DNA from: a virus
Direction: 5' to 3' (one strand)
IMG/VR virus record: IMGVR_UViG_3300045988_139374
Span: 206,994-270,993 of that record
Length of the DNA stretch: 64,000 nucleotides
The number at the start of each line of letters is the position of its first letter. Position 1 is the first letter of the stretch. A program made the position numbers and the translations under genes. The notes beneath the pieces are model-generated. The model was not told the origin of the DNA. It made no database searches and saw nothing but the letters and a program-made list of their open reading frames with translations. Of the stretch, positions 1-63,957 are shown one piece after another.

Positions 1-126
1 TATAAATTGGAATCCTTCGCTTAAATCATTATTACCAATAATAGTATTAATTAAAATTTTATCTAGTGATATTGTATATCCATTTATAGAACTAATAGCT
101 GTCATCATTTTAATAGAAGCGTCAGA
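1..126 (-). other. start-less DAS cassette X0 (partial, runs off left edge)
   Basis: The minus strand opens at a reverse copy of TGACGCTTCTA (core 114-124). It reads SDASIKMMTAISSINGYTISLDKILINTIIGNNDLSEGFQFI for all 42 codons to the window edge, with no start codon or RBS. Confidence 0.6.
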
Positions 127-1828: not shown

Positions 1829-2122
1829 TCTGACGCTTCTATTAAGTACATAGATATTTCATTACATCTAAAGAGTAGTATATCATATGAACATAACATA
1901 TCATCAAATCCTATTATATCTATTATAGGAGTTTTTACAAATATTAGTAATTGTATTCCAATACTTAATAATCTATCTTTTGAAGAAAAAATTGATTCTA
2001 ATGATAACTTAGTCGAATTCCAAGTAATTGACTATAATTTATATACTATAAGTAGTGGAAAATTAATATTAACAAAAGTATCTGGATATGTTACTATATT
2101 TTATATTGAACCTTCCAATTAA
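1829..2122 (+). other. start-less DAS cassette X1 (97 codons)
   Basis: Motif core at 1831-1841, with TAA (1826-1828) in the same frame directly upstream. The ORF runs SDASIKYIDISL...GYVTIFYIEPSN-stop and has no ATG or RBS. Confidence 0.65.
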
Positions 2123-2126
2123 ATAA

Positions 2127-2633
2127 TCTGACGCTTCTAAGAATTTTGGAAATGGAAGTTTTATTAAATCCATTACTTATGAAGGATATTATACAATTAG
2201 TGATAAATATATAAACCATATGAGTTCAGATACTTGTATTAGAACTACTGTATCTAAAATGTATGATGTTGTGTTATTCGCTGAATTAGAAACTACAAAC
2301 AATACTTTATTAGCTGAGCAAAATCCATATGTTAAAGTATTTCAAAATATTATCAAAGGTTCATTTGCTGGATATGTATTTATGAATTTAATGCCTACAT
2401 CTTGGAAGATTTTATATAATAATACTTCTAGCAATGATTTTATTGGGCCATATGTTGAATATGATCATTGTCCTACAAGTGGTGTAGTAGCTAGAAGAAA
2501 TAGATTATCCATAGAAAGATACTGTGCAAAGTATACTAACAATATGGATTATCAATTATTAGCTAGACAAGGCATTAGATATGATGTATATGGTCTAATG
2601 CTTAGAGATGAAATTGCTAATCTATTTAGATAA
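2127..2633 (+). other. start-less DAS cassette X2 (168 codons)
   Basis: Motif core at 2129-2139, with in-frame TAA at 2124-2126. The frame SDASKNFGNGSF... continues into track ORF 2220-2633, which is in frame (93 nt offset). Confidence 0.65.
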
Positions 2634-2634
2634 G

Positions 2635-2820
2635 TATGACGCTTCTATCAAGCGAACTGTTGTTACTCTTAAATATAATAATACCGAAGTAGGATGTAAA
2701 TTTACATTAGGAGCTCCAGTTGGAGGATATATACTTACAGAAATTAATAGCTGGATTGTAATACGTATGGATAAAAATATGAATATTCTATATTTGGAAT
2801 TTATGTTCGTACTTGGTTAG
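2635..2820 (+). other. start-less DAS cassette C4 (61 codons, family C)
   Basis: Motif core at 2637-2647. The ORF reads YDASIKRTVVTLKYNNTEVGCKFTLGAPVGG..., and KFTLGAPV matches QFTLGIPISV of cassettes C1 and C3. Confidence 0.6.
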
Positions 2821-2994: not shown

Positions 2995-5451
2995 ATGGGA
3001 CTTAATATGAACTATCATTTTTTCCTTGAAGGATATCAGTCTCATTGCCATATTCCTGATTATATTAGGGCTAATAATTCTCAGATTCCAGTAGATGAAT
3101 CCATTCTGAAGGCTACACTAGAATTTGCTAATACTTGTAGAAATTCTGTTTCCACTATTACTTCTGTTTCTGAAGCAGATGCTGGTACTGTTCAATTTGA
3201 GCAAATTTATTCTTCTCTATCCACTGCTATTAGATCTGTAGATTCTGTAAAAGCTACTATGCTTAAGACAATAGAAGATGCAAGAATGAATGTAGATAGA
3301 TCTAGAGATCATAAAAACGATCAAATTGAATCTCAATATAATATTGCAGAGAGAGTAAAGTATCTAGATAAAGCTATTCATTTTGCTAGCACATCTAATC
3401 CTGATGATCTAATGTATAATTCTACTGCTAAGCTTTCTGCAGATATTACAGTTAAAGATCAATCATTCCCCAATCTGAATGCTATTAAAGATATTCTTCA
3501 TGGAAAGTCGATTGCTATTCCTGATAATATCACTGCTTCTTCTGATTATACTACTGGTATGATCATGGATAAAGATTCTGTTCTTTATACTCTGCTTGGT
3601 AAGTATTATTCTCCTGTAGAATCTGCTAGTATTATGCAATTTGCAGTGAACTTCACTAATGATTTTATGGATAATACTAAAATAGATCATAAGATTGAAG
3701 TACAGGATTATCTAACCGCATTCTCTAATATCAATGCAGTAGATGATATGATCAAGTATCTAGATAATCTTAAAGCAACTACAGAGTCTGCTTTTAATGA
3801 TTGTCTAAAAACTATGTATGATTACTGTGATCATCTTAAGGGAGAAGCTTCTACTAATTATAAAGAAAATTATGGTACTGTAATTAGTGCATTGATTAAC
3901 AATGTACAGAATATTATCTGTGCTGCTAATATTGTCACTACTAGAAAAGTAAATATTATTTCTAATCTATATGGTGCAAATGGAGATAGTTGGAAGACTA
4001 TTGAATTTGCCCATTCTCTGATTGGTAAATACTATGATAAGATCATTACTCCTAATGTAATGGCACAAGATGCTGGAAAAGATATTCCTAATAATGCTAT
4101 TGTATTCAATGGAGCAGATCAAGTTCAAGAATTTTATAATATTCAGAGCCAGTCTAATATTCTAGATATGCTTATTGAGAATGCTTATAATGAATATATG
4201 TATGACGATGCTCTAGAAAAGGTTTTGCAAGAAGCTACTGCTTTGCATGAAAATGATAATAACGGTGGAAATGCTACTCCTGCAAATGGTGGACAATCTG
4301 TAGGCTCTGGTGGTGATCAAGGATCTACTGGACAAGCTGGTCAGCAAGCTGCTCCTGCACAACAGCAAAATGCTAATAATGGCCAGCAACAGCAACAATC
4401 CGGAACTCAGAATTCTGCCAATAATACAAATGATAAGACTAAGAAGAATAAGTTTGGTATTCTTAATTGGCTGAAGCAAATGATGGGCAGACTCGGTGAA
4501 GCTATCAACAAGTTTAAACTTCGTGTTGAGGAAATGATTACTAAAGGCCCTGATAAAAAGTTCTGGGCTGATAATAAAGATAAGATTAGAAATATTGATA
4601 TTTCTGGTACTGAAGTTAATCAGTGGTATCAATATAAGTTTGATATCTTTAAGAATTCTACTTATATCAAATTCAATCCTACTGATAATACTCTTAAGTC
4701 TGATACTGATCTACAAGATGCTATTCTTTCTAAGATTAATGGCGGTACAAAACCCAATATTAATACTGATGAAAAGGATACATTTGCTACCAAGATCAAT
4801 AAAGTATATCAGGGTGAATATATTAATATTGAAAATGGTAATGGCAAGACTCTAGGAGATATTCAATACAATAAGGATGCTGCATTTACCTTTGTTGATC
4901 AATTTATCAATAAAGGATTTAATAGTGAATCTCTAGGCTCTATTACTGAAGATTATCGTAAGATTGATGAAGACTATAAAGATGCTGCTAAGAGATATGA
5001 TGAATATGCTAATCAGTTTAAGCAGACTCAATCTCAGAATCAAGCATCTAATAATTCTGGTGAACCTAAATCTAATGGTAACACTTCTGGAAACTCTGGC
5101 AATCAAAGTGGTAATACACAACAGCAGCAAGCAAATGCTGAATCTGCATTCTCTGATTTTTCCTCTGGATTTAATCTGGCTGAATGCCTTGGATTGATGA
5201 ACTGTGGAAACGCTATTAATGAAGCAGATATTAAGCCTGATCAATCTACTGCACAATCTGCAGATCAAGCTAACGGTACTATTGATAATGCTGAGCTTGA
5301 TAAGATGATTCATCGTTGCTTCTCTATGAATATTTCTGCTATTACTGCTAAACTTACTAATGCTATGGCAGCATATAAACAGAATATGCAACTCTTTAAA
5401 GCAGTTACTAAAGCATCTGCTGTAAAGAATAAGGATAATAATAAAAAGTAA
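2995..5451 (+). CDS. large hypothetical protein with Q/N/G-rich low-complexity linkers (possibly virion-associated)
   Basis: 818-codon ORF with an AAGGAG RBS. Two low-complexity stretches are present (NGGNATPANGGQS...QQQQQSGTQN and SNGNTSGNSGNQSGNTQQQQ). Confidence 0.85.
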   Translation: MGLNMNYHFFLEGYQSHCHIPDYIRANNSQIPVDESILKATLEFANTCRNSVSTITSVSEADAGTVQFEQIYSSLSTAIRSVDSVKATMLKTIEDARMNVDRSRDHKNDQIESQYNIAERVKYLDKAIHFASTSNPDDLMYNSTAKLSADITVKDQSFPNLNAIKDILHGKSIAIPDNITASSDYTTGMIMDKDSVLYTLLGKYYSPVESASIMQFAVNFTNDFMDNTKIDHKIEVQDYLTAFSNINAVDDMIKYLDNLKATTESAFNDCLKTMYDYCDHLKGEASTNYKENYGTVISALINNVQNIICAANIVTTRKVNIISNLYGANGDSWKTIEFAHSLIGKYYDKIITPNVMAQDAGKDIPNNAIVFNGADQVQEFYNIQSQSNILDMLIENAYNEYMYDDALEKVLQEATALHENDNNGGNATPANGGQSVGSGGDQGSTGQAGQQAAPAQQQNANNGQQQQQSGTQNSANNTNDKTKKNKFGILNWLKQMMGRLGEAINKFKLRVEEMITKGPDKKFWADNKDKIRNIDISGTEVNQWYQYKFDIFKNSTYIKFNPTDNTLKSDTDLQDAILSKINGGTKPNINTDEKDTFATKINKVYQGEYINIENGNGKTLGDIQYNKDAAFTFVDQFINKGFNSESLGSITEDYRKIDEDYKDAAKRYDEYANQFKQTQSQNQASNNSGEPKSNGNTSGNSGNQSGNTQQQQANAESAFSDFSSGFNLAECLGLMNCGNAINEADIKPDQSTAQSADQANGTIDNAELDKMIHRCFSMNISAITAKLTNAMAAYKQNMQLFKAVTKASAVKNKDNNKK

Positions 5452-17338: not shown

Positions 17339-17374
17339 GCCAATAGGAGTAATCCTATTGGCTTTATTTTTTTT
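17339..17374 (+). terminator. rho-independent terminator
   Basis: GCCAATAGGA pairs with TCCTATTGGC, followed by a long T-run. Confidence 0.8.
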
Positions 17375-21779: not shown

Positions 21780-21819
21780 GGAGTGAAGAGTAAAATCTTC
21801 ACTTCCTTTTATTTTTTTA
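21780..21819 (+). terminator. rho-independent terminator
   Basis: GTGAAG pairs with CTTCAC within GGAGTGAAGAGTAAAATCTTCACTTCC, followed by a T-run. Confidence 0.7.
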
Positions 21820-21822
21820 TAA

Positions 21823-22066
21823 TCTGACGCTTCTACTAATATTAAAAAACTTGATAATGTATATATATATATATTCAAAAGGATATGAATTAGCAGGTAC
21901 AATGATAGGATGTAATATACTAGACAGGCCAAGTATAGCCAAGAATGATTTTGTCTACATGGCATATCAAATTGAAGGTATAGTATATGCCGTATATGGA
22001 CCATATAAGTCTTCTTCGATTAACTTTACAGTGTATGGTACTAATGCAAATATACTATACATTTAA
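21823..22066 (+). pseudogene. DAS cassette A1 (family A), frame broken in an (AT)7 run
   Basis: Motif core at 21825-21835 with in-frame TAA at 21820-21822. SDASTNIKKLDNVYIYI then shifts frame inside ATATATATATATAT (21861-21874). The remainder, SKGYELAGTMIGCNIL...ANILYI-stop, aligns with A2 and A3. Confidence 0.6.
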
Positions 22067-22069
22067 TAC

Positions 22070-22402
22070 ACTGACGCTTCTAATAAAATTTTTAAAATGG
22101 ATATTAAGTCTGATACAATAATATTCGATGGATTATTTGATTATAAAAGAATATTTCTTTGGCCAGATTGCGATTTTGTTATATTATCAATTTATGATGA
22201 TAATGCTGTTATACGGCCTTTTAATGTTAATAATAATCATAAGGTACTTCTTTGGTATTCTTGGTATCATGATCATTATATGAATAATGGTGAAGATGCA
22301 ATAGGCACTGCAATAGATCTTTTATTTTCACAAAATTATGAAAATTATTCTCATACATTTCAAGAAATCAATACAATTATTTATTATAAGAACAAGAATT
22401 AA
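22070..22402 (+). other. start-less DAS cassette B1 (family B)
   Basis: Motif core at 22072-22082. TDASNKIFKMDIKS...LLWYSWYHDHY...INTIIYYKNKN-stop is in the same frame as A1, separated by the TAA at 22064-22066. Confidence 0.6.
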
Positions 22403-22408
22403 GATTAG

Positions 22409-22714
22409 TATGACGCTTCTAATAAAATCTATAAAACGGAAATTAGTTGTGGATATAAATCATTTAAGCAAGTAGTAGATTATATAAAGATAGGCGATAT
22501 AAGTGATTTTGTTATTCCAATATCAATATATAAAAAATCTGCAGATATACGTCCTATGAGTAATTCTACTGGAGCAGATGCACTTCTTTGGTATTCTTGG
22601 TATTATACTGAAAATAAAACTAGTATATTTCTTTTATATACTACCAAAGCTACTTCTACGAATTATTCATTTCAAGAACTTAATACGATTGTATATTATA
22701 TTCTACCAATCTGA
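22409..22714 (+). other. start-less DAS cassette B2 (family B, 101 codons)
   Basis: Motif core at 22411-22421. YDASNKIYKTEISCG...ISDFVIPISIYKKSADI...LLWYSWYY...NTIVYYILPI ends on the TGA that is part of the next motif copy (22712-22714). Confidence 0.65.
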
Positions 22715-22955
22715 CGCTTCTATAAAGAAGCTTAATAATATTTATATTGCTTATGATGTTGGGTATGAATTAAATGGTACAATGATAGGATATAATATAT
22801 TAACAGTTCCAAATAATTTTGTCATCAATGACAAATATAATTATATTGGAGCGTTTCAGTATAAAGATAAAATATATGCTATATATGGATACACTGTGAT
22901 CAACGGATTTACTCTTACCAGATATAATAGCTATGCTAATATAGTATATATTTAA
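22710..22955 (+). other. start-less DAS cassette A2 (family A, 81 codons)
   Basis: Motif core at 22712-22722. The ORF reads SDASIKKLNNIYIAYDVGYELNGTMIGYNIL...YANIVYI-stop. Confidence 0.65.
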
Positions 22956-22956
22956 G

Positions 22957-23247
22957 TCTAATGACGCTTCTATTAAACATCTTAGTTTTGCCTGTGATAC
23001 TGTTACATTTGTTGCTATGATAGGTTTTAGAAAGATATATAATACATATAATAGTATTATATATCCGATATCTATATATACTACAGATCGTATACTTCCT
23101 GCTACTGATGGAGAAGACATAATTGTCCCAATATTTGCATGGTATAATTATAGTAACAATACTAGCATTTATCTATGCTTATTTCAGACAGAGCTGCATA
23201 CAACTGTAATGAATAATTTTACAACACATGTTTATTATATAAAATAA
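22957..23247 (+). other. start-less DAS cassette B3 (family B, divergent)
   Basis: Motif core at 22962-22972. The ORF reads SNDASIKHLSFACDTV...YPISIYTTDR...IFAWYNYSNNTSIY...THVYYIK-stop. Confidence 0.6.
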
Positions 23248-23251
23248 TTAA

Positions 23252-23476
23252 TCTAATGACGCTTCTATAAAAAAGCTTAGTAATATTTATATTAATACTT
23301 TTAATGGATATCCATTAAATGGCACAATGATAGGATGCGATATATTAGATAGTCCAAATTGGATGTTTAATTATATTACAGCATATCAATATAAAGGTAA
23401 AATATATGTTACATCATGGGCATCTGGCAGCGATTTTCAAAGTTTTAATAGCCATGCAAATATTGTATATATTTAA
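23252..23476 (+). other. start-less DAS cassette A3 (family A, 74 codons)
   Basis: Motif core at 23257-23267. The ORF reads SNDASIKKLSNIYINTFNGYPLNGTMIGCDIL...HANIVYI-stop. Confidence 0.65.
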
Positions 23477-23607
23477 TTTATTTACACATCTGGTGCATTA
23501 AAGCTAAAATAACATCTCAGTAAGGTATCCAATTTTGGTGCTGATTGGATATCTGTCCAATATCACTTAGGCGATGTTGGTAGGCATAATATTTTCTCCA
23601 AAAAGAT

Positions 23608-23643
23608 CGGTAGGAAGTTTAAACTTCCTACCGGTTTTTATTT
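23608..23643. terminator. bidirectional terminator hairpin
   Basis: CGGTAGGAAGT pairs with ACTTCCTACCG and is flanked by AAAA and TTTTT. It sits just downstream of the minus-strand gene ending at 23644. Confidence 0.85.
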
Positions 23644-24390
23644 TTAGTTATCTCGTTCTATTCTCTTAGCATGCTTTTCAAGCGTATAAGGATTATAGTA
23701 ATTTTCATCAATTAGATTACTATGAATATTAGCACCAATTAGATATACGTTCATAGCATTCTTAGGAATACTATCTGTCTTTTCAGAATCAATGTCATCA
23801 AAGCTAACTTCACCTTTGACATTGATAGTATTATAAGCTTCAGCTTTAGCTTTCATAGCAGCAGCTTTAACACGAGCATACTCAGCAGTAGTGTTCTCTA
23901 GATTCAACGCCATCGCACCCTCGAATTCTTTATTTGACTCTAGGCCACCTTTATCGGTACTCTGAAGGCGTCCTGTTAGTTTCATATCGCGTTTAGCAAT
24001 TTCAATAGCAGTATTATTCTTCTTAGTAAGCATCTGCTTTAGACGCTTAATATTTAGATACCCTACTAGACATTCTTTACTCTCGATAGGTTTGCCAGTT
24101 ACAGGATCTGTAGCTAGATAAGGAAGCTTAACTTTTTCCATTAGAGGCTTATTAAGAACTTTAAAAGCCTTAAATATATCAGGCATCTTAGGCTCGTTAT
24201 CAAAAGGAGCCACATGGTATCTAAAAGGAAGTCTACCAGAAATTAGCTTAGTAAATTCTGCATCAGACATATCTGCAAATAGCTTCTGATAATACTCAGT
24301 ATTAGCACCAGTAGGATCAATTGCAGAAAATGTTTTATAAATAAGCTCTTCACATTTTTGACGAGTTTCAGGAGTTATAGTTTTAGGCAT
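23644..24390 (-). CDS. possible RNAP beta-subunit C-terminal fragment (very divergent)
   Basis: 248 codons. ECLVGYLNIKRLKQMLTKK...GGLESNKEFEGAMAL is colinear with bacterial beta IGYMYMLKLNHLVDDK...GGQRFGEMEVWAL. The E. coli sequence is recalled from memory and the similarity is weak. Confidence 0.3.
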   Translation of the reverse strand: MPKTITPETRQKCEELIYKTFSAIDPTGANTEYYQKLFADMSDAEFTKLISGRLPFRYHVAPFDNEPKMPDIFKAFKVLNKPLMEKVKLPYLATDPVTGKPIESKECLVGYLNIKRLKQMLTKKNNTAIEIAKRDMKLTGRLQSTDKGGLESNKEFEGAMALNLENTTAEYARVKAAAMKAKAEAYNTINVKGEVSFDDIDSEKTDSIPKNAMNVYLIGANIHSNLIDENYYNPYTLEKHAKRIERDN

Positions 24391-24403
24391 AATTCATTAC
24401 TCC

Positions 24404-25600
24404 TTAAGATTGTTTATTGGCTACATTAACAGTGATTGCAATATAGCCAAGAATGGATTTATAATAATTATTTTTTGTAGCTTGCGTTTTAATATTTTGG
24501 TATCTTTCACTAGTATTAAGCCAATTAAGAATAATATTTTTCATTTCAATAATATTCTTATCTTTAGTATTGGGTTTCATAGCAATACTATTAGCAATAA
24601 ATTTAGGTCCAGTCATATCCTTTTCATCTGGATATTTAGTATGGAAATCTGTTAGTAGAGTATTGATAACAGTTCTAAGATCATTTAGCCGTGCATTACT
24701 ATTAAGAATATTTTCCATGATAGCTTTGATTTCATAAGGATCTACTCCTGTACTAGATACACTATAACAGACATTAATACTAATTTGAGTACTAGTAAAA
24801 TATGTCATCGCTTTTTCTGTAATAGCAGATATTACAGTAGAATCATTATTAGCAATTCTATAATCTTCTTTATCATAATTATCAGATTCTTTATTTAGAT
24901 AAAGCTTATTATCATATGCTTTATAATAAGGAACCGAAATATTCTTTAGAAATGCTAGAATTCTATTATGCAGCTGATGAATAATATAGCAAACTCTTTC
25001 ATCTGTAATGTCAGACATTAGTTCATCTTTATATGCTTCTAACCAAGTCATAGTCAGACTTCTAATAGCACCAAATACACTCTTCTGTTTAATAAGATCA
25101 TATTTCTGAGAAAGCATATAATTGATGACATAATCCATAACTTCTCGCTTAGGTAAGCTATGAGGCCATAGTTTATAATGGCATGATGCATAGAATTTAC
25201 CAGAGAAAGAAATATATACAGCACATAGTTCAATAAGTTTTTGATCTTTTTTATTGCTCAATAACCATCTTAGAACCATAAAAGCTGTAAGAGAAAATTC
25301 ATCTTTACATGCTTGGAGTTCATCATCTTTCCAATAATATAACTGAGGTAGAATATTAGTAACAGTTTTTTGATTTACATTAATACTCTTAAAGAAATCA
25401 TTAACGTCACTCTTCTTAAAGAAAATTCTATCTACAGGAGCATAATCATATAGACTAGCTTGTCTACTATGAATAAATCTTTCAATACAAGATTTTAATG
25501 CACTACATTTACTACCCATAGTAGCTTCTACAAGAGGATAAATTTGATCTATAATAACAGTATCTTCTATGAGATATTGCTTTTTGGAAACTTTAGCCAT
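24404..25600 (-). CDS. hypothetical protein (same operon as 23644-24390)
   Basis: 398-codon ORF with an AGGAGGAG RBS. Confidence 0.85.
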   Translation of the reverse strand: MAKVSKKQYLIEDTVIIDQIYPLVEATMGSKCSALKSCIERFIHSRQASLYDYAPVDRIFFKKSDVNDFFKSINVNQKTVTNILPQLYYWKDDELQACKDEFSLTAFMVLRWLLSNKKDQKLIELCAVYISFSGKFYASCHYKLWPHSLPKREVMDYVINYMLSQKYDLIKQKSVFGAIRSLTMTWLEAYKDELMSDITDERVCYIIHQLHNRILAFLKNISVPYYKAYDNKLYLNKESDNYDKEDYRIANNDSTVISAITEKAMTYFTSTQISINVCYSVSSTGVDPYEIKAIMENILNSNARLNDLRTVINTLLTDFHTKYPDEKDMTGPKFIANSIAMKPNTKDKNIIEMKNIILNWLNTSERYQNIKTQATKNNYYKSILGYIAITVNVANKQS

Positions 25601-25603
25601 CTT

Positions 25604-25684
25604 CTATCTCCTCCTTATAATTTTATAAGGATGTTTTGGTAAGTCAAAACATATAGATAAAATGGTAGATAAGATTTTCATCAT
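25604..25684 (-). CDS. candidate 26-aa upstream small ORF / leader peptide
   Basis: AAGGAGAG lies 10 nt before the ATG at 25684. The peptide is MMKILSTILSICFDLPKHPYKIIRRR, and its stop falls inside the RBS of the 24404-25600 gene. Confidence 0.3.
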   Translation of the reverse strand: MMKILSTILSICFDLPKHPYKIIRRR

Positions 25685-25754
25685 TGTGATTATACTCTCC
25701 TTAAAGATATTGGTTGCATTTCATAACAGCTTACGGTATCTTATCTACCATTTT
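25659..25754. repeat. 17-bp perfect inverted repeat, arms 62 nt apart
   Basis: AAAATGGTAGATAAGAT (25659-25675) pairs with ATCTTATCTACCATTTT (25738-25754), in the divergent intergenic region between 25600 (-) and 25774 (+). Confidence 0.8.
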
Positions 25755-25773
25755 TATTTATTGAGGTAATCTT

Positions 25774-26172
25774 ATGAATAATATGAATATTAGAATCTAT
25801 TATAATCATCTTTATGATGATTATAAGAAATATTGTTTTCTGCTTTATATTGAAGAACTAGGAATATTTGTTTCAACTACCAATGACTTATTCACTTCTA
25901 TTGAAAAACCTGATGTAGTTATTGATAATGAAATAATTGATGCTTATGCTATGTCCAGAGGATTTACTAAGCTACTAGAAACATATTTTAGAGAAGATAA
26001 TATTTCTTGGATTAATGATGCATATGATAGGAAAAATGATTTGATAAGTACTCTTAATAATGCTAAGGATAGTATTAAGGACCATTATAAATACACGGTT
26101 AATGGAAGAGTACCCAAACTTTCTTATACTCTATATGCAGTCATTAATAGTCTGCTAAATAAAATTAAATAA
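25774..26172 (+). CDS. hypothetical protein
   Basis: 132 codons with a TGAGGTAA RBS-like run. Confidence 0.7.
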   Translation: MNNMNIRIYYNHLYDDYKKYCFLLYIEELGIFVSTTNDLFTSIEKPDVVIDNEIIDAYAMSRGFTKLLETYFREDNISWINDAYDRKNDLISTLNNAKDSIKDHYKYTVNGRVPKLSYTLYAVINSLLNKIK

Positions 26173-26178
26173 TAAAAC

Positions 26179-26209
26179 GGGAGTAGGATTTAATCCTACT
26201 CCCAATATT
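26179..26209. terminator. bidirectional terminator hairpin
   Basis: GGGAGTAGGAT pairs with ATCCTACTCCC, between convergent genes. Confidence 0.85.
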
Positions 26210-27520
26210 TTAATCCTTTTTAACGCCGAATTCACGAGAAGAAAATACTTCGATAATATTCAACTTGCCACTCTTAATACCAGAAATAGTAATCGTATGA
26301 GCATTTGTTCCACTTTCCAATTTGGTCTTAATATTAATATTTCCGAATGTATAAGTCTTTTCAGTCTGATCTTTCCAATTCATTATGACCATAGTACTCA
26401 GAGGAGTATTATTACCATTGATATCAATAAGATTACTAAATACTAGATTGTATATATTCAGAGTAGCATTATCATGCCAGTTATCGACATATATCTTAAC
26501 AGTAGCAGTATTATTACTTACATTCAGTGTATAATTAGAGATATCATTATTCTTAGAATCCTTGACAACAGAATTGGGGAATTGATAATTAAGTGCATCT
26601 ACACCAGAAATAGTAATATTACTATTCATGTAGAATCCACCACATTTGATAGTCTGTGCTTCTTTTGCAGGAGCTACAGTCTGTCCATCCATATCAGGAA
26701 CATTTTGAATGATATATCCATTTCCTGTATGATATCCCTTAGGAATATAATACTTACTATTCATTTTGAAGTTAATAACTTCAGGTTCTACTTTCTTAAC
26801 GCTACCTACAACCTGTTCACCATTAACCCAAGCCGTATAACCTTCAACAATAACTTCAGAATATGCTGTACCATTAGTTTGTCCTGCTAGATTTGCAGCG
26901 TTGACTACACCTCTGCCATCATGATATCCTTCAGGAATTGTATAACTACCACCTGCAACTAGTGTATTAGTAGTAGATTTATTTACAGTCATTGTACCAT
27001 CTACTCTTTTACCATTAGCCCAGCAATAGCTACCTTTCTTAATATCTGCAGCAACGATAGATGCCTTTGTTTGGCTCATTAGATCTTTTGCTACAATAAT
27101 TCCATTGCCATCGTGATATCCTTTAGAAATTCTATGAGAAGCACCACATAGCAGAGTATCATTTTCGGAACCATTATCAGGCATTGCACCTGTAACTTTT
27201 ACACCATTAACCCAAGCAGTTCTATTAATTAGAATATCATCAGCAGTAGCATTAGAAGGCGTAAGATTAGATAGATCTTGAGCCTTTACTGTATATGCTT
27301 TAGGGTTAATGCCGTAAGGAATATTTAGTGTAGATCCTGCAGTCAGAGTAATTGTACCAGTTCTAGTACTATTAACAGGAATAGTACCAGATTCCATATG
27401 CTGAGTAGAGCCAATAAATTGCTTGCCTTGAGCAACATCAGCAGGAGTAGCATTTAGCAAATTTCTATCTGCAACTACAACATCTACGATATTAATAGAA
27501 TCAGTAAATGGCATAACCAA
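26210..27520 (-). CDS. tail fibre-like protein with AWVNG repeat units
   Basis: 436 codons with a TAGGAGGT RBS. TAWVNGVKVTGAM, YCWANGKRVDGTM and TAWVNGEQVVGSV units are interleaved with GYHDGxG units, the same repeat family as in 27619-30729. Confidence 0.6.
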   Translation of the reverse strand: MVMPFTDSINIVDVVVADRNLLNATPADVAQGKQFIGSTQHMESGTIPVNSTRTGTITLTAGSTLNIPYGINPKAYTVKAQDLSNLTPSNATADDILINRTAWVNGVKVTGAMPDNGSENDTLLCGASHRISKGYHDGNGIIVAKDLMSQTKASIVAADIKKGSYCWANGKRVDGTMTVNKSTTNTLVAGGSYTIPEGYHDGRGVVNAANLAGQTNGTAYSEVIVEGYTAWVNGEQVVGSVKKVEPEVINFKMNSKYYIPKGYHTGNGYIIQNVPDMDGQTVAPAKEAQTIKCGGFYMNSNITISGVDALNYQFPNSVVKDSKNNDISNYTLNVSNNTATVKIYVDNWHDNATLNIYNLVFSNLIDINGNNTPLSTMVIMNWKDQTEKTYTFGNINIKTKLESGTNAHTITISGIKSGKLNIIEVFSSREFGVKKD

Positions 27521-27618
27521 AACCTCCTATTTTGTTACTATAAATTACTATGAAGTTGAACTTTCGAGCTTTCGCACATTATATTAATATTAGTAAAGGA
27601 GAGGAGTTGGATCAATAT

Positions 27619-30600
27619 ATGGCTGATAAAGAAATGTATTTCGATACATCTAGTGCCAATAATCTTGGGACATTGGCACTAGAGCCTGACGAATCTATGG
27701 CTACTCCATCGTCAGTAAAAGATAAATATGCCTTTAAAGATGCAGTAACAAGAGATGTATTGATAGGTACAATGCCTCTTATTCCTGCTGCTAATACTAA
27801 GATTGACCCTAAATATGATGGCCATGTAAATAATACTTATAATATTCCAGAAGGCTATCATAATGGTAAAGGTACTGTTTATGTAGGAGATCTTAGCGAA
27901 TATACTCCTGGTACAGCTAAGCCAGAAGATGTTTCTGCATCTAAGACTTTCTGGGTAAATGGTAAAAAATATTCTGGTACCCTAGATGTAAAGCAAGCAA
28001 CCCAAGAAGCAGATGCTACACCTTGGGATATCGTTTCTCCTAAGACTGCTTGGGTAAATGGTAAGAAAGTTACTGGTTTGATTCCTTCTCTCCCTAGAAA
28101 AGATCAAAATTTACTTGCTGGAGAATCTTATACTTTTCCATATGGATTATCTGCTGGTACTACTGTAATTTCTGCTGCTGATCTAGCATCGCAAACTGTA
28201 GCTAATGCAAAGGCTAATCAGATTATAAAAGGACAAACAGCTTGGGTTAATGGTGTTAAAGTTACTGGTACATTTGATCTTGTAGAAAATACAAAAGAAT
28301 ATCTGAAAGAAACAAATGCTACTCAGAATCAAGTTCTGAGTAGTAAAAAATTCTATTCTTCTGTATATGGCCAAGTAATGTCTGGTACAATGCTTGACCA
28401 TAGCAATGATCCAGTTAGAACTCTTTTAAATGGAGTCACATTTACAATTCCTGAAGGATATTACTCTGGTAGAACATCTATCAAAGTTCAATCTCTTAGA
28501 GATGCTACTATATCTAATGCTACAGAAGATACAATTCTAGTTAATAGAACAGCTTGGGTTAATGGTGTTAAAGTCACCGGCACTATGCCTATGATAGATT
28601 CTAAGATTGTAGAACTTGGAGCTGGAGAATCTTTTGATATTAAGAAGGGTTTCCATACTGGTACTGGTAAAGTAAGAGCAAAAGATCTATCTGGAGAAAC
28701 TATAGGCACTGCTGAAGCTGGAGATCTACTAGTTGGAAAATCTATGTGGGTCAATGGTAAGAAGATAGTTGGTACAATGCCAGATATCGAAGCTTCTACT
28801 ACTAATCTTAAGCCTGGTGGAACATATCAAATTCCTGAAGGTCATCATAGTGGTAATGGATCTGTAACAGTAAAATCTCTTGCATATTATACTTCTGCAA
28901 ATGCTACTGCTAGTGATATTCTTACTACTAAGAATGCTTGGGTAAATGGAGTTAAAGTAGAAGGCACTATGGCAAATAATGGTGCTGTTTCTTCTATTCT
29001 TGCTGCTGGAGCATCTTATACAGTTCCTAAAGGATATCATAATGGATCTGGTGTTATTAAGGCACAAGATCTTGCATCTCAGACTTCTGCAAATGCTGCT
29101 GCAGATGATATTCTATCTCCCAAAACTGCATGGGTTAATGGTAAGAAAGTCACTGGCACACTAGCAATTGATGGATCTGCGTCTCAAGATGATGTAATTG
29201 CAGGTAAGACATTCTACAATAACGATCCTAAGGCTAAAAGAACTGGTACACTAACCCTTACTGGTAATGCTACTGAATCTGATGTAGTATCTGGAGTTAC
29301 TTATTATACTACAGATCCTAAGAGAAAGCATACTGGATCTTTAACTCTTAATGGCACTGCTAATACTGCACAAGTATTGTCTGGATATACTTTCTATAAG
29401 AATAATCCTAAAGCTAAAGTAACTGGCACCATGAAGAATAATGGTGGAATATCTGCCACTCTTAATGCAAATCAGTCCTTTACTATTCCTGAAGGATATC
29501 ATGATGGATCAGGTACAATTATTGCAAATGGTCTATCTGGACAAACTTCTGGTACTGCTACTGCTAGTGATATTGCAAAAGGAGCTACTGCTTGGATTAA
29601 TGGAGTCAAAGTAACTGGTACTTTGGAATTAACAGGCGATGCTACTCCTGAACAAGTTGTTGCTGGAGCCACTTTCTATAGTAATAATCTTAAGCAAAAA
29701 ATGATAGGCACTATGATTCAAGTGCCTACTAAAATCGTTTCCCTTCGTGCTGGTGAATCTTATACAATTCCTGCTGGCTATTATGATGGTACATCCAAAG
29801 TATTTGCTGTAGATCTTGCTTCTCAGACTCAAGCAACTGCTGATGTAAATAAAGTTCTAGAAGGATATACGGCATGGGTTAATGGTAAAAAGATTACTGG
29901 TAAGATGCTAAACCAAGGATCTAGATCTTTTAGAGATTTAGTAGCTGGTAGTAATATTAAGATTCCAGAAGGATATTATTCTGGATATGGATATATTACT
30001 ACTCTTGATCTTGCTACTCAAACCCAATCAGATGCTACGGCAAATGATATCCTGATAACTAAAACTGCATGGGTTAATGGAGTTAAGGTTACTGGATCTA
30101 TGCCAAATAATGGATCTTGGACTCAAGAAAATGTAAATGCTGGATCAAGTGTTACTATTCCTAAGGGATATCATAATGGTTCTGGTAAAATTACTATTAA
30201 AAGTCTAAGAGATCAAACTCAATCTAATGCTGTTCCTTATAATCTACTTATTGCTAAGACTGCATGGGTTAATGGATCTAAAATTACTGGTACTATGCCA
30301 GATAATACTGGATGGTCTTCTAAAGAAATGACCGCAGGATCTTCTGCTACCATTCCTGCTGGATTCCATGATGGTACAGGTGTTATAACTGCAAAGTCTC
30401 TTGCTTCTCAAACTCAAGCAACTGCAGGAGCTGCTGATATTCTATCTCCAAAGACTGCATGGGTTAATGGATCTAAAATTACTGGTACTATTCCTACTTA
30501 TACTACGTCTAAGTTGAGAATAGCTGCTGGCTACGATACTATTCTTCCTGCTGGATATTATGCAAATCCGATTCATATTTATAGCTTGTATGGAGATGAT

Positions 30601-30729
30601 GTTCTAGACCTAACAGGTACTAGTGCAGAATATGAGCAACCTACTGAATCTCTACTGCCTAATGATGATGGATATGTTGATACGGCAGAGACTAAGCTTG
30701 TTATCACTGCAGATCTAATAGGTGGATAA
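27619..30729 (+). CDS. large tail fibre protein, about 18 tandem units of a repeat of roughly 55-65 aa
   Basis: The likely start is ATG 27619, after GGAGAGGAG, although the track ORF starts at 27550. Repeat consensus: DIL..KTAWVNG.K(V/I)TGTMP..G......AG.SYTIP.GYH(N/D)GSG.V.AKDLASQT. Confidence 0.65.
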   Translation: MADKEMYFDTSSANNLGTLALEPDESMATPSSVKDKYAFKDAVTRDVLIGTMPLIPAANTKIDPKYDGHVNNTYNIPEGYHNGKGTVYVGDLSEYTPGTAKPEDVSASKTFWVNGKKYSGTLDVKQATQEADATPWDIVSPKTAWVNGKKVTGLIPSLPRKDQNLLAGESYTFPYGLSAGTTVISAADLASQTVANAKANQIIKGQTAWVNGVKVTGTFDLVENTKEYLKETNATQNQVLSSKKFYSSVYGQVMSGTMLDHSNDPVRTLLNGVTFTIPEGYYSGRTSIKVQSLRDATISNATEDTILVNRTAWVNGVKVTGTMPMIDSKIVELGAGESFDIKKGFHTGTGKVRAKDLSGETIGTAEAGDLLVGKSMWVNGKKIVGTMPDIEASTTNLKPGGTYQIPEGHHSGNGSVTVKSLAYYTSANATASDILTTKNAWVNGVKVEGTMANNGAVSSILAAGASYTVPKGYHNGSGVIKAQDLASQTSANAAADDILSPKTAWVNGKKVTGTLAIDGSASQDDVIAGKTFYNNDPKAKRTGTLTLTGNATESDVVSGVTYYTTDPKRKHTGSLTLNGTANTAQVLSGYTFYKNNPKAKVTGTMKNNGGISATLNANQSFTIPEGYHDGSGTIIANGLSGQTSGTATASDIAKGATAWINGVKVTGTLELTGDATPEQVVAGATFYSNNLKQKMIGTMIQVPTKIVSLRAGESYTIPAGYYDGTSKVFAVDLASQTQATADVNKVLEGYTAWVNGKKITGKMLNQGSRSFRDLVAGSNIKIPEGYYSGYGYITTLDLATQTQSDATANDILITKTAWVNGVKVTGSMPNNGSWTQENVNAGSSVTIPKGYHNGSGKITIKSLRDQTQSNAVPYNLLIAKTAWVNGSKITGTMPDNTGWSSKEMTAGSSATIPAGFHDGTGVITAKSLASQTQATAGAADILSPKTAWVNGSKITGTIPTYTTSKLRIAAGYDTILPAGYYANPIHIYSLYGDDVLDLTGTSAEYEQPTESLLPNDDGYVDTAETKLVITADLIGG

Positions 30730-61356: not shown

Positions 61357-61566
61357 TCTGACGCTTCTAATAAGATTAAGAGTACAGATTTTACATCAGG
61401 GTATCAATTCACATTAGGTATTCCAATATCTGTTGCATGTAAAAGTGACCATAATTGTATTGCATATATAACTAAATCATATTGGATATATTGTATGTAT
61501 TTTAGTACGACTGGTAGTGCTGATTATAAAATATATAATAGGCCTTGTATAGTATATTATATTTAA
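61357..61566 (+). other. start-less DAS cassette C1 (family C, 69 codons)
   Basis: Motif core at 61359-61369 with in-frame TAA at 61354-61356. The ORF reads SDASNKIKSTDFTSGYQFTLGIPISVAC...NRPCIVYYI-stop. Confidence 0.65.
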
Positions 61567-61636: not shown

Positions 61637-61849
61637 TTTGACGCTTCTACTAAAATTAGGCATCAAGATATAAATATTACAGATAGTAGTGGATATACTT
61701 TTAGAACTGGAACACCTATATCTGCAGTATATATAGGAGATACAAGTAGTAATTATGCTATTATAACTTTTTCAAATGTAATTATGATAAAAGGTTTCGG
61801 ATCATTAGGTTCTAGTACTACAGGTACTGCTAGAGTATATTATATCTAA
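61637..61849 (+). other. start-less DAS cassette C2 (family C, 70 codons)
   Basis: Motif core at 61639-61649 with in-frame TAA at 61634-61636. FDASTKIRHQDINITDSSGYTFRTGTPISAVY...GTARVYYI-stop is followed by the degenerate motif ATCTAATGAtatTTC. Confidence 0.65.
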
Positions 61850-62497: not shown

Positions 62498-63409
62498 TTA
62501 TCTTATCATTATAAGTGGAAATATGCCAGGATTTTTATCTCCATTACCATAATTGTAAACATCTTTGTCTATTACAGATCCATTAGATACACACCATGGC
62601 ATATCATAATAAGAAGAATGAGCATTACCATACGAAGTTCCTCTTAATCCTCTTAGAAGCGAGTAATCTCCAAATTGCCAAGTATTAAAATTAAAATATG
62701 GTAGTTTATAATTAGCTTCACCATCATCATAAACTGTATTATTTACACCAAAAGTACCAGTAATTTGACCAGCACTCATAAGAGCACCATAACATACAGT
62801 CCATTCATATCCAGTGGTATTACTACCAACATTAGCGCTATTAGACAGTAGCATTCTTCTTTTTATTAAATGATCTTTTAATATAGAATCATTATTTACA
62901 AATGAAGATTGTAAATAATTGTTAATTTTTTTATGAACACCAGTATTCATATAACCATTGCTTAATGACATATTTCCATTATCATATGTAAAAAACGATG
63001 TTGTAGGAATCATAAATATACCATATCCATTATCATAAGTAGTTCCATCTGAAGCAGTTTTATTATGCTCACAATCAAATCCAACTATTACCCATGTCTT
63101 ATTATATGTACCATCTTTAATAGTTATTGTAGAACCAATAGAAGCGTCATAATAGCCAGTAGCATGATTACATGTACTAAGAAAATTATCTACATCGCTA
63201 ATACTAGACCAAGTACCAAGATTCTTAACTTCATATCTAGTATTAGGAGGAGTAGTATCATGATCCAAATTACTGCTATCACCTAGAATTTTGATAATAA
63301 TAGATTGTATAGATGTATCAGCACTAAAGGATGAACAATCAGGCAATCCTCCAACTTCATAAATTGTAACTATATCTTTACCTAAAGATACTTTATTAGA
63401 AGCGTCAGA
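62498..63409 (-). other. start-less DAS cassette D (303 codons, composite D1 plus D2; tail-fibre-tip-like)
   Basis: Reverse motif core at 63397-63407 with an in-frame TAA just upstream on the minus strand. The ORF reads SDASNKVSLGKDIVTIYEVGGLPDC...HATGYY|DASIGSTITIKDG... and has a second in-frame motif copy at 63139-63149. The sequence is G/N/Y/T-rich. Confidence 0.65.
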
Positions 63410-63428
63410 TTATTTAAAATAAATATAA

Positions 63429-63656
63429 TTAAATATAATATACTATACAAGAACAGGTACCAGTAGTATAAGTTGCATAGCTACCCAGAAAAAATCTAAT
63501 ACATCGTATATAATATGATTTATTGATATAAGTAATATATGGAATCGGAACACCATTATTACTACTTACATTACGTGTAACAGATATTGGTATACCTAAT
63601 GTAAATTGATCTTCTGATGCAAAATCTACACTCTTAATTTTAGTAGAAGCGTCAGA
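63429..63656 (-). other. start-less DAS cassette C3 (family C, 75 codons)
   Basis: Reverse motif core at 63644-63654. The ORF reads SDASTKIKSVDFASEDQFTLGIPISVTRN...CSCIVYYI-stop. Confidence 0.65.
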
Positions 63657-63957
63657 TTGGTAGAATATAATAAACAATTGTATGAAGTTCTTGAAATGAA
63701 TACCTTGCAGATGTATCTTTTGCAGCATATAAAACATATATGCTTGTTCCATTTTCTATATGATACCAAGAATACCAAAAAATTGCATCACTATTATTTG
63801 TATTGCTTCTAGGATACATATCTGCAGATTTTTTATATATAGATATTGGAATAATAAAATCGCTTATATCTTTTATCTTTATATAATCTATTCCAGCACT
63901 AAATGCTTTATATGCATAATTAATTTCCATCTTATAAATTTTAGTAGAAGCGTCATT
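63652..63957 (-). other. start-less DAS cassette B4 (family B, 101 codons)
   Basis: Reverse motif core at 63945-63955. NDASTKIYKMEINYA...ISDFIIPISIYKKSADM...IFWYSWYH...HTIVYYILPI ends on the TGA inside the next motif copy (63652-63654). Confidence 0.65.

Follow-up and report, generated by a model that had tools for sequence, protein, structure and literature searches.

Array 2 is a tandem row of six open frames (21821-23476, + strand) in the genome of a human-gut jumbo phage of ∼260-276 kb. It lies in the 64-kb stretch that we analysed (64,000 nucleotides, positions 206,994 to 270,993 of IMG/VR record IMGVR_UViG_3300045988_139374), called the window below. We consider it likely that the six units are silent 3′ segments, i.e. 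alternative C-terminal ends of one fibre-like protein, which are expressed once they are joined to a module carrying the start of the gene. We observed in-frame fusions of such segments to one constant N-terminal part, the diversity of these fusions, exact breakpoints, the same module at multiple sites, and a circular form of the module. The 5′ part of the gene (upstream sequence, Shine-Dalgarno (SD) sequence, ATG and 137 codons) would be carried on this 944-bp module, outside the window, and recombination at a core, TGACGCT, would join the constant part in frame to one cassette, the sole one expressed. The remaining cassettes would be silent because they have neither a start codon nor an SD sequence, and we identified no promoter for them.

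Start-less cassettes behind an invariant site

Array 2 contains six exact copies of the 11-mer TGACGCTTCTA (Table 1), all of them direct repeats. In the window as a whole there are 16 exact copies and a further one with a single mismatch, whereas shuffled windows contained 0.72 copies on average and never more than 3 (with up to one mismatch). An initial annotation of this DNA had described six motif-led units in the order A1-B1-B2-A2-B3-A3, with irregular spacing (247, 339, 301, 250 and 295 nt) and with junction frames too inconsistent for a polyprotein. Order, spacing and frames were borne out by our analysis, and with the frames the argument against a polyprotein. The array was also said to start right after a terminator, and a terminator scan indeed placed a hairpin at 21780-21805, directly upstream. 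Both terminators that had been named as its borders are real, but the array does not fill the space between them, as it ends 125 nt before the second. The gaps between units are 0-9 nt, and no conserved inverted repeats (attC-like palindromes) were found at the unit ends. The earlier estimate that paralogues are half to two-thirds identical fits family A (49-60%) but is too high for family B (26-44%), within which B3 is highly divergent; B2 is 68% identical to the cassette at 63945 (− strand). Likewise, the 11-mer is invariant as claimed, but the conserved site is longer than 11 nt, with the consensus T-rich, ATAATC, TGACGCTTCTA, N-T-A-A.

At 15 of the 16 window copies a long open frame follows the motif and reads x-GAC-GCT-TCT-A ('DAS'), usually with a TAA one codon 5′ of it. 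Because stops make up 7.5% of the codons of the window (0.075 per codon), the open frames of array 2 are not due to chance; for a frame of 72-109 codons the chance probability is ∼4e-3 to 2e-4 each. No in-frame ATG, GTG or TTG with an SD sequence opens any unit of array 2, in agreement with the initial annotation, and the units are therefore unable to start alone. Ordinary genes of the window, including the neighbours of the array, start with GGAGG and ATG. One related unit on another contig contains no Met. In A1 the DAS frame closes after 20 codons and the A-type body resumes in another frame past a (TA)8 tract, a frameshift that recurs in an independent contig (L005). A1 is probably defective unless slippage corrects the frame, and slippage at the tract could toggle A1 between usable and unusable.

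Other routes to expression were tried and rejected. A sigma-70-type promoter with TGACG as its −35 element has no conserved −10 at the proper spacing. A start at an NTG (C/A/T-TG) overlapping the motif, followed by a frameshift, would fall in the wrong frame, with no slippery sequence and with frame-2 peptides of 5-25 amino acids (aa). A read-through or recoded polyprotein, with a +1 shift at the stops or with TGA read as Trp, does not agree with the inconsistent frames or with the stops that follow immediately. A tRNA-Leu(TAG) and a CAT-anticodon tRNA stand directly 3′ of cassette arrays in three related contigs (L007 2459-2649, L032 7014-7204, L042 6119-6309). Both have ordinary anticodon loops, which argues against a special initiator tRNA, and the CAT-anticodon tRNA, judged by reading its sequence, has no initiator features and is of the elongator Met or the Ile-lysidine type. 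No known RNA families or tRNAs were found in the 64-kb window, and a literature search for the motif returned nothing relevant.

We compared the array-2 locus in six contigs (L001-L006), one of which is identical to the window. The initial annotation had regarded the locus as liable to unit loss, gain or reshuffling, and both unit number and unit identity do differ between strains: the non-identical contigs had 3, 2-4, 2 or 1 units, as compared to 6 in the window, and the families were partly different. The flanks of the locus are 91-97% identical up to ∼21300 and again from ∼23506. The same motif occurs at many loci in related IMG/VR contigs of 190-259 kb, and one relative has 14 further cassettes in a single 13-kb stretch. 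Head-to-head site pairs and both site orientations exist at loci other than array 2.

Across 45 distinct copies the 11-mer is unchanged, without any synonymous change, and the frame is always x-GAC-GCT-TCT. Codons 4 and 5 (I/T/N and K) vary synonymously, and so does the C-terminal ..YYI motif. As the 11-mer is invariant while codons 4 and 5 vary in this way, the junction appears to be translated yet constrained as DNA. Long open frames, most of them 60-110 codons, are retained in 44 of the 45 distinct units. Pairwise ratios of nonsynonymous to synonymous polymorphism (pN/pS) between related units were mostly 0.5-1.5, with one pair at 2.9, which shows that the cassette proteins are fast-evolving. 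The small units align to a single scheme, DAS.K .. F..G.PIS .. Y .. I.YYI, and a typical cassette domain has ∼70-110 residues, begins with DAS-x-K and usually ends with ..YYI. The AlphaFold model of a cassette is a confident six-stranded all-beta domain (pLDDT 90).

These data also bear on whether the units could be pseudogene fragments in decay, with no present function, that arose when the 3′ end of a fibre gene was duplicated. Decay would fit the frameshift in A1, the pN/pS values near 1 and the degenerate sites that occur (e.g. TGACGCTTTTG and TGACGCTTCTC), but it would not be expected to leave the 11-mer invariant, to spare the long frames of all but one unit where 7.5% of codons are stops, to keep the N- and C-terminal protein motifs in spite of synonymous variation, or to preserve a confidently predicted common fold. 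We regard this explanation as extremely improbable.

Fusion genes and the 944-bp expression module

When the cassettes alone were used for a profile search, all hits were short open reading frames (ORFs, 53-122 aa). A contig from the neighbourhood of the right end of the window (L124) carries an SD-ATG gene in which 137 residues (MAIIDKIKVGSTTYDV…IPTSALIYSMNQTLTSLN) are followed by the motif and then by a cassette, and the cassette in this expressed position is the one that is start-less at 63397 (−) in the window. The constant part ends in …SMNQTLTSLN, its coding DNA includes …ATGAATCAGACTCTAACTTCGC, and its in-frame fusion to the cassette falls precisely on the motif (N-DAS). It was absent from the 64-kb window and from the array-2 loci L001-L006. 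A search with the constant part gave 78 homologues, mostly of 205-244 aa, the length of the constant part with a single small cassette. Constant parts that are 97-99% identical carry unrelated C-terminal cassettes, and 65 fusions fell into 29 cassette clusters.

Several cassettes of the window have fused homologues. The C-terminal part of fusion P0103 matches A1 at 49% identity, that of P0131 matches A2 at 58% and A3 at 63%, and that of P0142 matches the cassette at the window start (site 114-124, −) at 57%. In contig L129 the expression module is fused to a homologue of the cassette at 61639-61849. The homologue of the array-1 unit at 2129 was found fused in P0183 (3 contigs) and unfused in 23 contigs, in genomes of ∼275 kb. 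L123 and L124 differ by 1 mismatch over 11,503 bp, and their homology ends at the last base of the motif. That homologous units are fused at the motif elsewhere supports the initial reading of array 2 as an array of cassettes without expression signals of their own; that reading had not recognised the constant part to which the cassettes belong, the 7-bp core of the junctions or the frameshift in A1. In P0165-P0180, where the constant part is 51-62% identical, ..SMNQTL(T/N)SLN-DA. is kept and continues as DAL, DAI, DAY, DAW or DAM into other C-terminal parts. As these proteins keep the junction with other continuations, the TGACGCT core junction seems to be older and wider than the 11-mer.

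The structure predicted for the constant part (low confidence) is a beta hairpin with helices, the last of which ends at the junction, where the beta head would follow. Some alternative C-terminal parts begin with ..GGTMTG.., which, together with weak profile matches, we take to be fibre-like. These features weakly suggest that the modular protein is a trimeric fibre or receptor-binding protein. Sequence searches with the cassettes against Pfam, PHROGs and PDB gave nothing significant.

We determined the boundaries of the module by aligning four contexts. The homology opens with ATTACGAAGTAG directly after one TGACGCT and closes with CTTCGCTAAA directly before another, the outer flanks are unrelated, and the distance from core to core is 944 bp. 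The 7-bp core, which codes for (N)-D-A, corresponds to bases 1-7 of the 11-mer. The module contains a terminator-like hairpin, an SD sequence, an ATG and the 137 constant codons, and ∼530 bp precede the gene start. The same boundaries were present in eight contexts at four or more loci (Table 1), in the order flank, TGACGCT, ATTACGAAG ... CTTCGCTAAA, TGACGCT, TCT-cassette; the constant part in L130-L132, from more distant phages, is 79-83% identical. As expected of an expression site, each stretch examined (none a complete genome) had one constant module and many silent cassettes. Moreover, a MEGAHIT k141 contig of 1085 bp (L138) has a 141-bp terminal repeat and thus implies a 944-bp circle. 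The single junction of this circle, CTAACTTCGCTAAA-TGACGCT-ATTACGAAGTAG, is also present in a second contig, and its arms form an imperfect inverted repeat.

The module has further internal sequence features. It holds four or five copies of TTGTGAAGnC..TTTAAGA (e.g. L129 9467-10000), an inverted partial site, TGACGCTACTA, ∼360 bp from its left boundary, and a duplicate of the 5′-untranslated-region motif CCyAAAATGGGyA.TTTTAAGA. The repeats, TGACGCTACTA and the duplicate may be accessory binding sites or mark an invertible sub-segment.

With the fusions and module boundaries in hand, it is very unlikely that each unit is an independent small gene headed by a phage-specific promoter or 5′ leader and translated from a non-canonical start. 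The motif does follow terminators together with the AT-rich ATAATC, always in the orientation of the ORF, and the phage has other strongly conserved promoter-like motifs, but this motif heads only one class of ORF and the module boundaries lie inside it. A few units have a nearby ATG (MWN-DAS at 63945, M at codon 9 of B1, MNDAS in P0001), whereas most have no start codon or SD sequence and ordinary genes have both. The fused forms, by comparison, account for the fixed frame and for the translated N-DAS junction.

How could the module move? Excision and integration are favoured by the direct 7-bp repeats at its ends, its many positions and its circular form. In L124 the right-hand junction is joined to a cassette with different left neighbours, and because of this arrangement and the head-to-head site pairs, inversion or deletion between sites may also occur. 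We infer a reaction of conservative site-specific recombination, in which the module is excised and integrated and/or pairs of sites recombine to invert or delete the DNA between them. The enzyme would be the conserved Xer-like tyrosine recombinase of the phage, and the swapping of fibre tips would diversify host recognition within the phage population. Contig L131 encodes this recombinase (4445-5419, 325 aa, Phage_integrase 5e-40), which is closest to the XerA/XerC/XerD models and scored 103 and 65 bits against integron-integrase models with cut-offs of 265 and 435. It is 92-98% conserved in four related IMG/VR contigs; a cassette array lies 1.3 kb downstream of it in three of these, and the module is 4.1 kb away in L131. 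The 90% cluster to which it belongs comprises 292 sequences, from contigs that reach 272 kb in length. The recombinase is a candidate for the switching enzyme, tied to the cassettes by proximity.

The same arrangement might have arisen without an enzyme-driven switch, as an evolutionary mosaic made by ordinary recombination at short identical sequences, with the constant part fixed in each lineage. Such a history would agree with the fact that differences were observed only between samples and that the recombinase is linked by proximity only, and the module loci in the distant phages (L130-L132) could be lineage-specific. However, several observations speak against a mosaic: an exact breakpoint beside 11.5 kb with 1 mismatch, a circular 944-bp form, a 7-bp core that is identical at both module ends in 8 of 8 contexts, and the same cassette fused and unfused among near-identical genomes. 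Many fusion genes lie on very short contigs, which is expected if assemblies break at heterogeneous junctions, and a tyrosine recombinase is conserved in a jumbo phage of the virulent type. A mosaic is therefore unlikely, although it has a better claim than independent genes or pseudogenes.

Several observations weigh against the proposal that array 2 is a store of silent fibre ends. All rearrangements that we saw are differences between assemblies or samples, plus one circular contig, and a tandem duplication would be another explanation for the circle; the inverted-repeat score of the circle junction is only within about the top 2-3% of random positions. The recombinase is neither in the 64-kb window nor linked to the window's own contig, and the module was not seen within the array-2 locus (L001-L006). 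Among the 65 fusions we did not find a fused homologue of the B type, and one of the six cassettes, A1, is frameshifted. Purifying selection on individual cassettes is weak (pN/pS 0.5-1.5, up to 2.9). Finally, the assignment as a fibre rests on sub-threshold matches (PHROG tail fibre 1e-3, Gp53-like_C 5e-4, Peptidase_G2 (IMC) 1e-4), and Foldseek searches of the cassette models against PDB and BFVD gave nothing significant.

Other features of the window and of related contigs

Table 1. Cassettes and bordering elements in the window, and contexts of the expression module in related contigs
Feature	Position or locus	Strand	Remarks
Terminator hairpin, T-run and ATAATC; left context of first recombination site	21780..21824	+	terminator scan
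Cassette A1	21825..22066, site 21825-21835	+	body frameshifted at (TA)8 21860-21875
Cassette B1	22072..22402, site 22072-22082	+	109 codons from DAS
Cassette B2	22411..22714, site 22411-22421	+	100 codons; stop is the TGA of the next site
Cassette A2	22712..22955, site 22712-22722	+	80 codons
Cassette B3	22962..23247, site 22962-22972	+	94 codons, divergent B type
Cassette A3	23257..23476, site 23257-23267	+	72 codons
Non-coding spacer and bidirectional terminator (23602-23639); right border of variable island	23477..23639	+	
Array 1, three motif-led cassettes	1831..2820 (1831-2122, 2129-2633, 2637-2820)	+	
Motif-led cassette running off the window start	1..124, site 114-124	−	
Two cassettes	61359-61566, 61639-61849	+	
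Three cassettes	62498..63955	−	63945 (B type), 63644 (C type), 63397 (302 codons)
Module context	DHFR/167-aa locus	either strand	different sites; L124, L128, L129
Module context	between 258-aa gene and RNase H-like gene		L130, L132
Module context	beside dCMP deaminase gene		L131
Module context	array-1 locus upstream of 818-aa gene		L140, same contig as L003
Module context	end of IMG/VR contig		L102

The hairpin, T-run and ATAATC context upstream of array 2 also precedes the first sites of other arrays and, in L130, the left boundary of the expression module. On the right side of array 2, the spacer (23477-23601) is largely strain-conserved from ∼23506 and includes the hairpin ggtatccaattttggtgctgattggatatc. 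A full motif copy at 63139-63149 (−) lies inside the large D/E cassette at 63397 (..GYY-DAS-IGS..), where relatives have GYY-GAS or GYY-GAT. The reading frame passes through this copy, which may be a secondary site or lie at the boundary of two domains.

The phage has split multisubunit RNA-polymerase genes (matches to PHROG 'RNA polymerase beta subunit') and a divergent family B DNA polymerase. It is very common in human-gut metagenomes, with one protein listed in 810 blocks of the collection, and a blastn search of 3.4 kb of the window (23644-27000) against GenBank phages gave no match. Samples that contain the phage include ERZ27287079, ERZ27287044, ERZ1304311 and ERZ1304729. Pfam and PHROGs scans of the larger ORFs gave no reverse-transcriptase match, although no search aimed at diversity-generating retroelements was made. 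A 37-bp element, TTTTAATTATTCTTATTTTCACTTGTATAGTATAAAA, stands after terminators at 17371, 21293, 35055 and 63963 (+), and three of the four copies are followed by a hairpin leader, an SD sequence and an ATG ∼80 nt downstream; it is probably one promoter class of the phage. C-type cassettes contain the core of this element, CTTGTATAGTATA, as well, in their ..CIVYYI* ends (61544 and 63440). A second element, AAACATCCTTATAA, lies ∼20-25 nt upstream of the SD sequence and start of four genes, at 25623 (+), 31465 (−), 44598 (−) and 49423 (−), read on the strand of each gene, and resembles the late-promoter consensus, AACA-N6-TA, of the non-virion RNA polymerase of Bacillus phage AR9.

In some strains, though not in the window, a radical-SAM enzyme gene lies beside cassette arrays (L129 11286-14578, L140 309-3793), and its small neighbours have a faint tSAM_targ_Cxxx_rpt match. 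Finally, the region 26210-30729 holds two large divergent ORFs (436 aa on the − strand and 1059 aa on the + strand) that have common internal repeats and both match PHROG 13589 in many stretches; the repeat GCATGGGTTAATGG recurs every 195 nt at 29872-30457.

Relation to known switching systems

The system is best called a variant of cassette switching by site-specific recombination that is unusual in its scale, in its dispersal in a jumbo phage and in its mobile 5′ gene part. Among described systems the Rin shufflon of Bifidobacterium prophages comes closest, with constant (Rc) and variable (Rv) parts, an 11-bp asymmetric repeat, TTCCCTAACCC, and a predicted tyrosine invertase; the tail-fibre inversion systems Min (p15B), Gin (Mu) and Cin (P1) are also close (PMC6109161). 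The phage has in common with all four a constant N-terminal part, start-less C-terminal segments, a short repeat heading each segment and very dissimilar variable parts. Rin, Min, Gin and Cin, which act on receptor-binding or tail-fibre genes, differ in that they occupy a compact single locus of 2-6 segments, work by inversion and have a fixed constant part. Their recombinase gene is adjacent to the locus; the candidate recombinase of the phage lies outside the window, but near a cassette array in three of four related contigs. The phage, of ∼270 kb and with its own RNA polymerases, has no fewer than 16 cassettes in the 64-kb window. Most of them form direct tandem arrays, the arrays are located at several loci with tens of kb between them, and the constant part lies on a 944-bp module that is found at many sites and as a circle.

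The shufflon of R64/IncI plasmids uses the Rci tyrosine recombinase and asymmetric in-frame sites, each with a 7-bp core and one conserved arm, to switch the tip of the PilV adhesin. Here, too, one constant 5′ gene part goes with several start-less alternative 3′ parts, a short crossover repeat heads each variable part inside the reading frame and contains a conserved 7-bp core, and it is the C-terminal tip that would be switched. In contrast, R64 switches by inversion only, within a single locus of 4 segments, and has no excisable 5′ module. We did not find the inverted sites in one compact locus that are typical of shufflons; the cassettes occupy at least four loci, and the module ends are direct 7-bp repeats.

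Expression-site switching, which the phage system resembles in its logic, is known from the vsa genes and HvsR of Mycoplasma pulmonis. In the Vpma system of M. agalactiae, which is of the same type, the Xer-like recombinase Xer1 moves one expression site among silent genes (PMC2268961, PMC5634654). Both mycoplasma systems differ from the phage in that they concern bacterial surface lipoproteins and use inversions at one locus, whereas the phage has a structural-type viral gene, dispersed cassettes and a 5′ module that is apparently excised and integrated.

Integrons resemble the phage system in that promoterless cassettes stand in direct arrays with a short conserved core at every boundary, and in having a tyrosine recombinase and circular intermediates. 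Their cassettes are mobile, while the promoter and attI are fixed. In the phage this logic is reversed: the promoter-plus-5′-exon module is apparently the mobile circle and the cassettes are stationary. In addition, the phage cassettes are partial genes that are fused in frame, and unlike integron cassettes they have no attC-like palindromes at the 3′ ends of the units. An integron platform of IntI, attI and Pc was not found either, as the integrase scores are low and the expressed 5′ part sits at different sites, so that there is no fixed platform. We put forward, tentatively and with some doubt, that the system is a 'reverse integron', in which a Xer-like recombinase may move a 944-bp mini-circle among dozens of silent tips in a 270-kb phage of the virulent type. 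The small ORFs of PeSL-like mobile promoter cassettes in T4-type phages have their own start and ribosome-binding site, and the units described here have neither.

One practical consequence concerns annotation: of the 'hypothetical small ORFs' in these genomes, dozens do not represent genes themselves. If our interpretation is true, this would be the largest cassette repertoire yet seen for a phage protein of the receptor-binding type, in an organisation not previously described, with silent partial genes, dispersed direct arrays and a mobile 5′ gene module. It would account for the breaks that assemblies of these phages show at cassette loci. It would also make available, in compact natural form, the parts needed for programmable in-frame domain swapping, namely one recombinase, a 7-bp core and an 11-16-bp site. 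For the phage itself, one genome could yield progeny with any of dozens of receptor-binding tips, which would provide a concrete mechanism by which an uncultured jumbo phage could have a broad host range or shift it rapidly.

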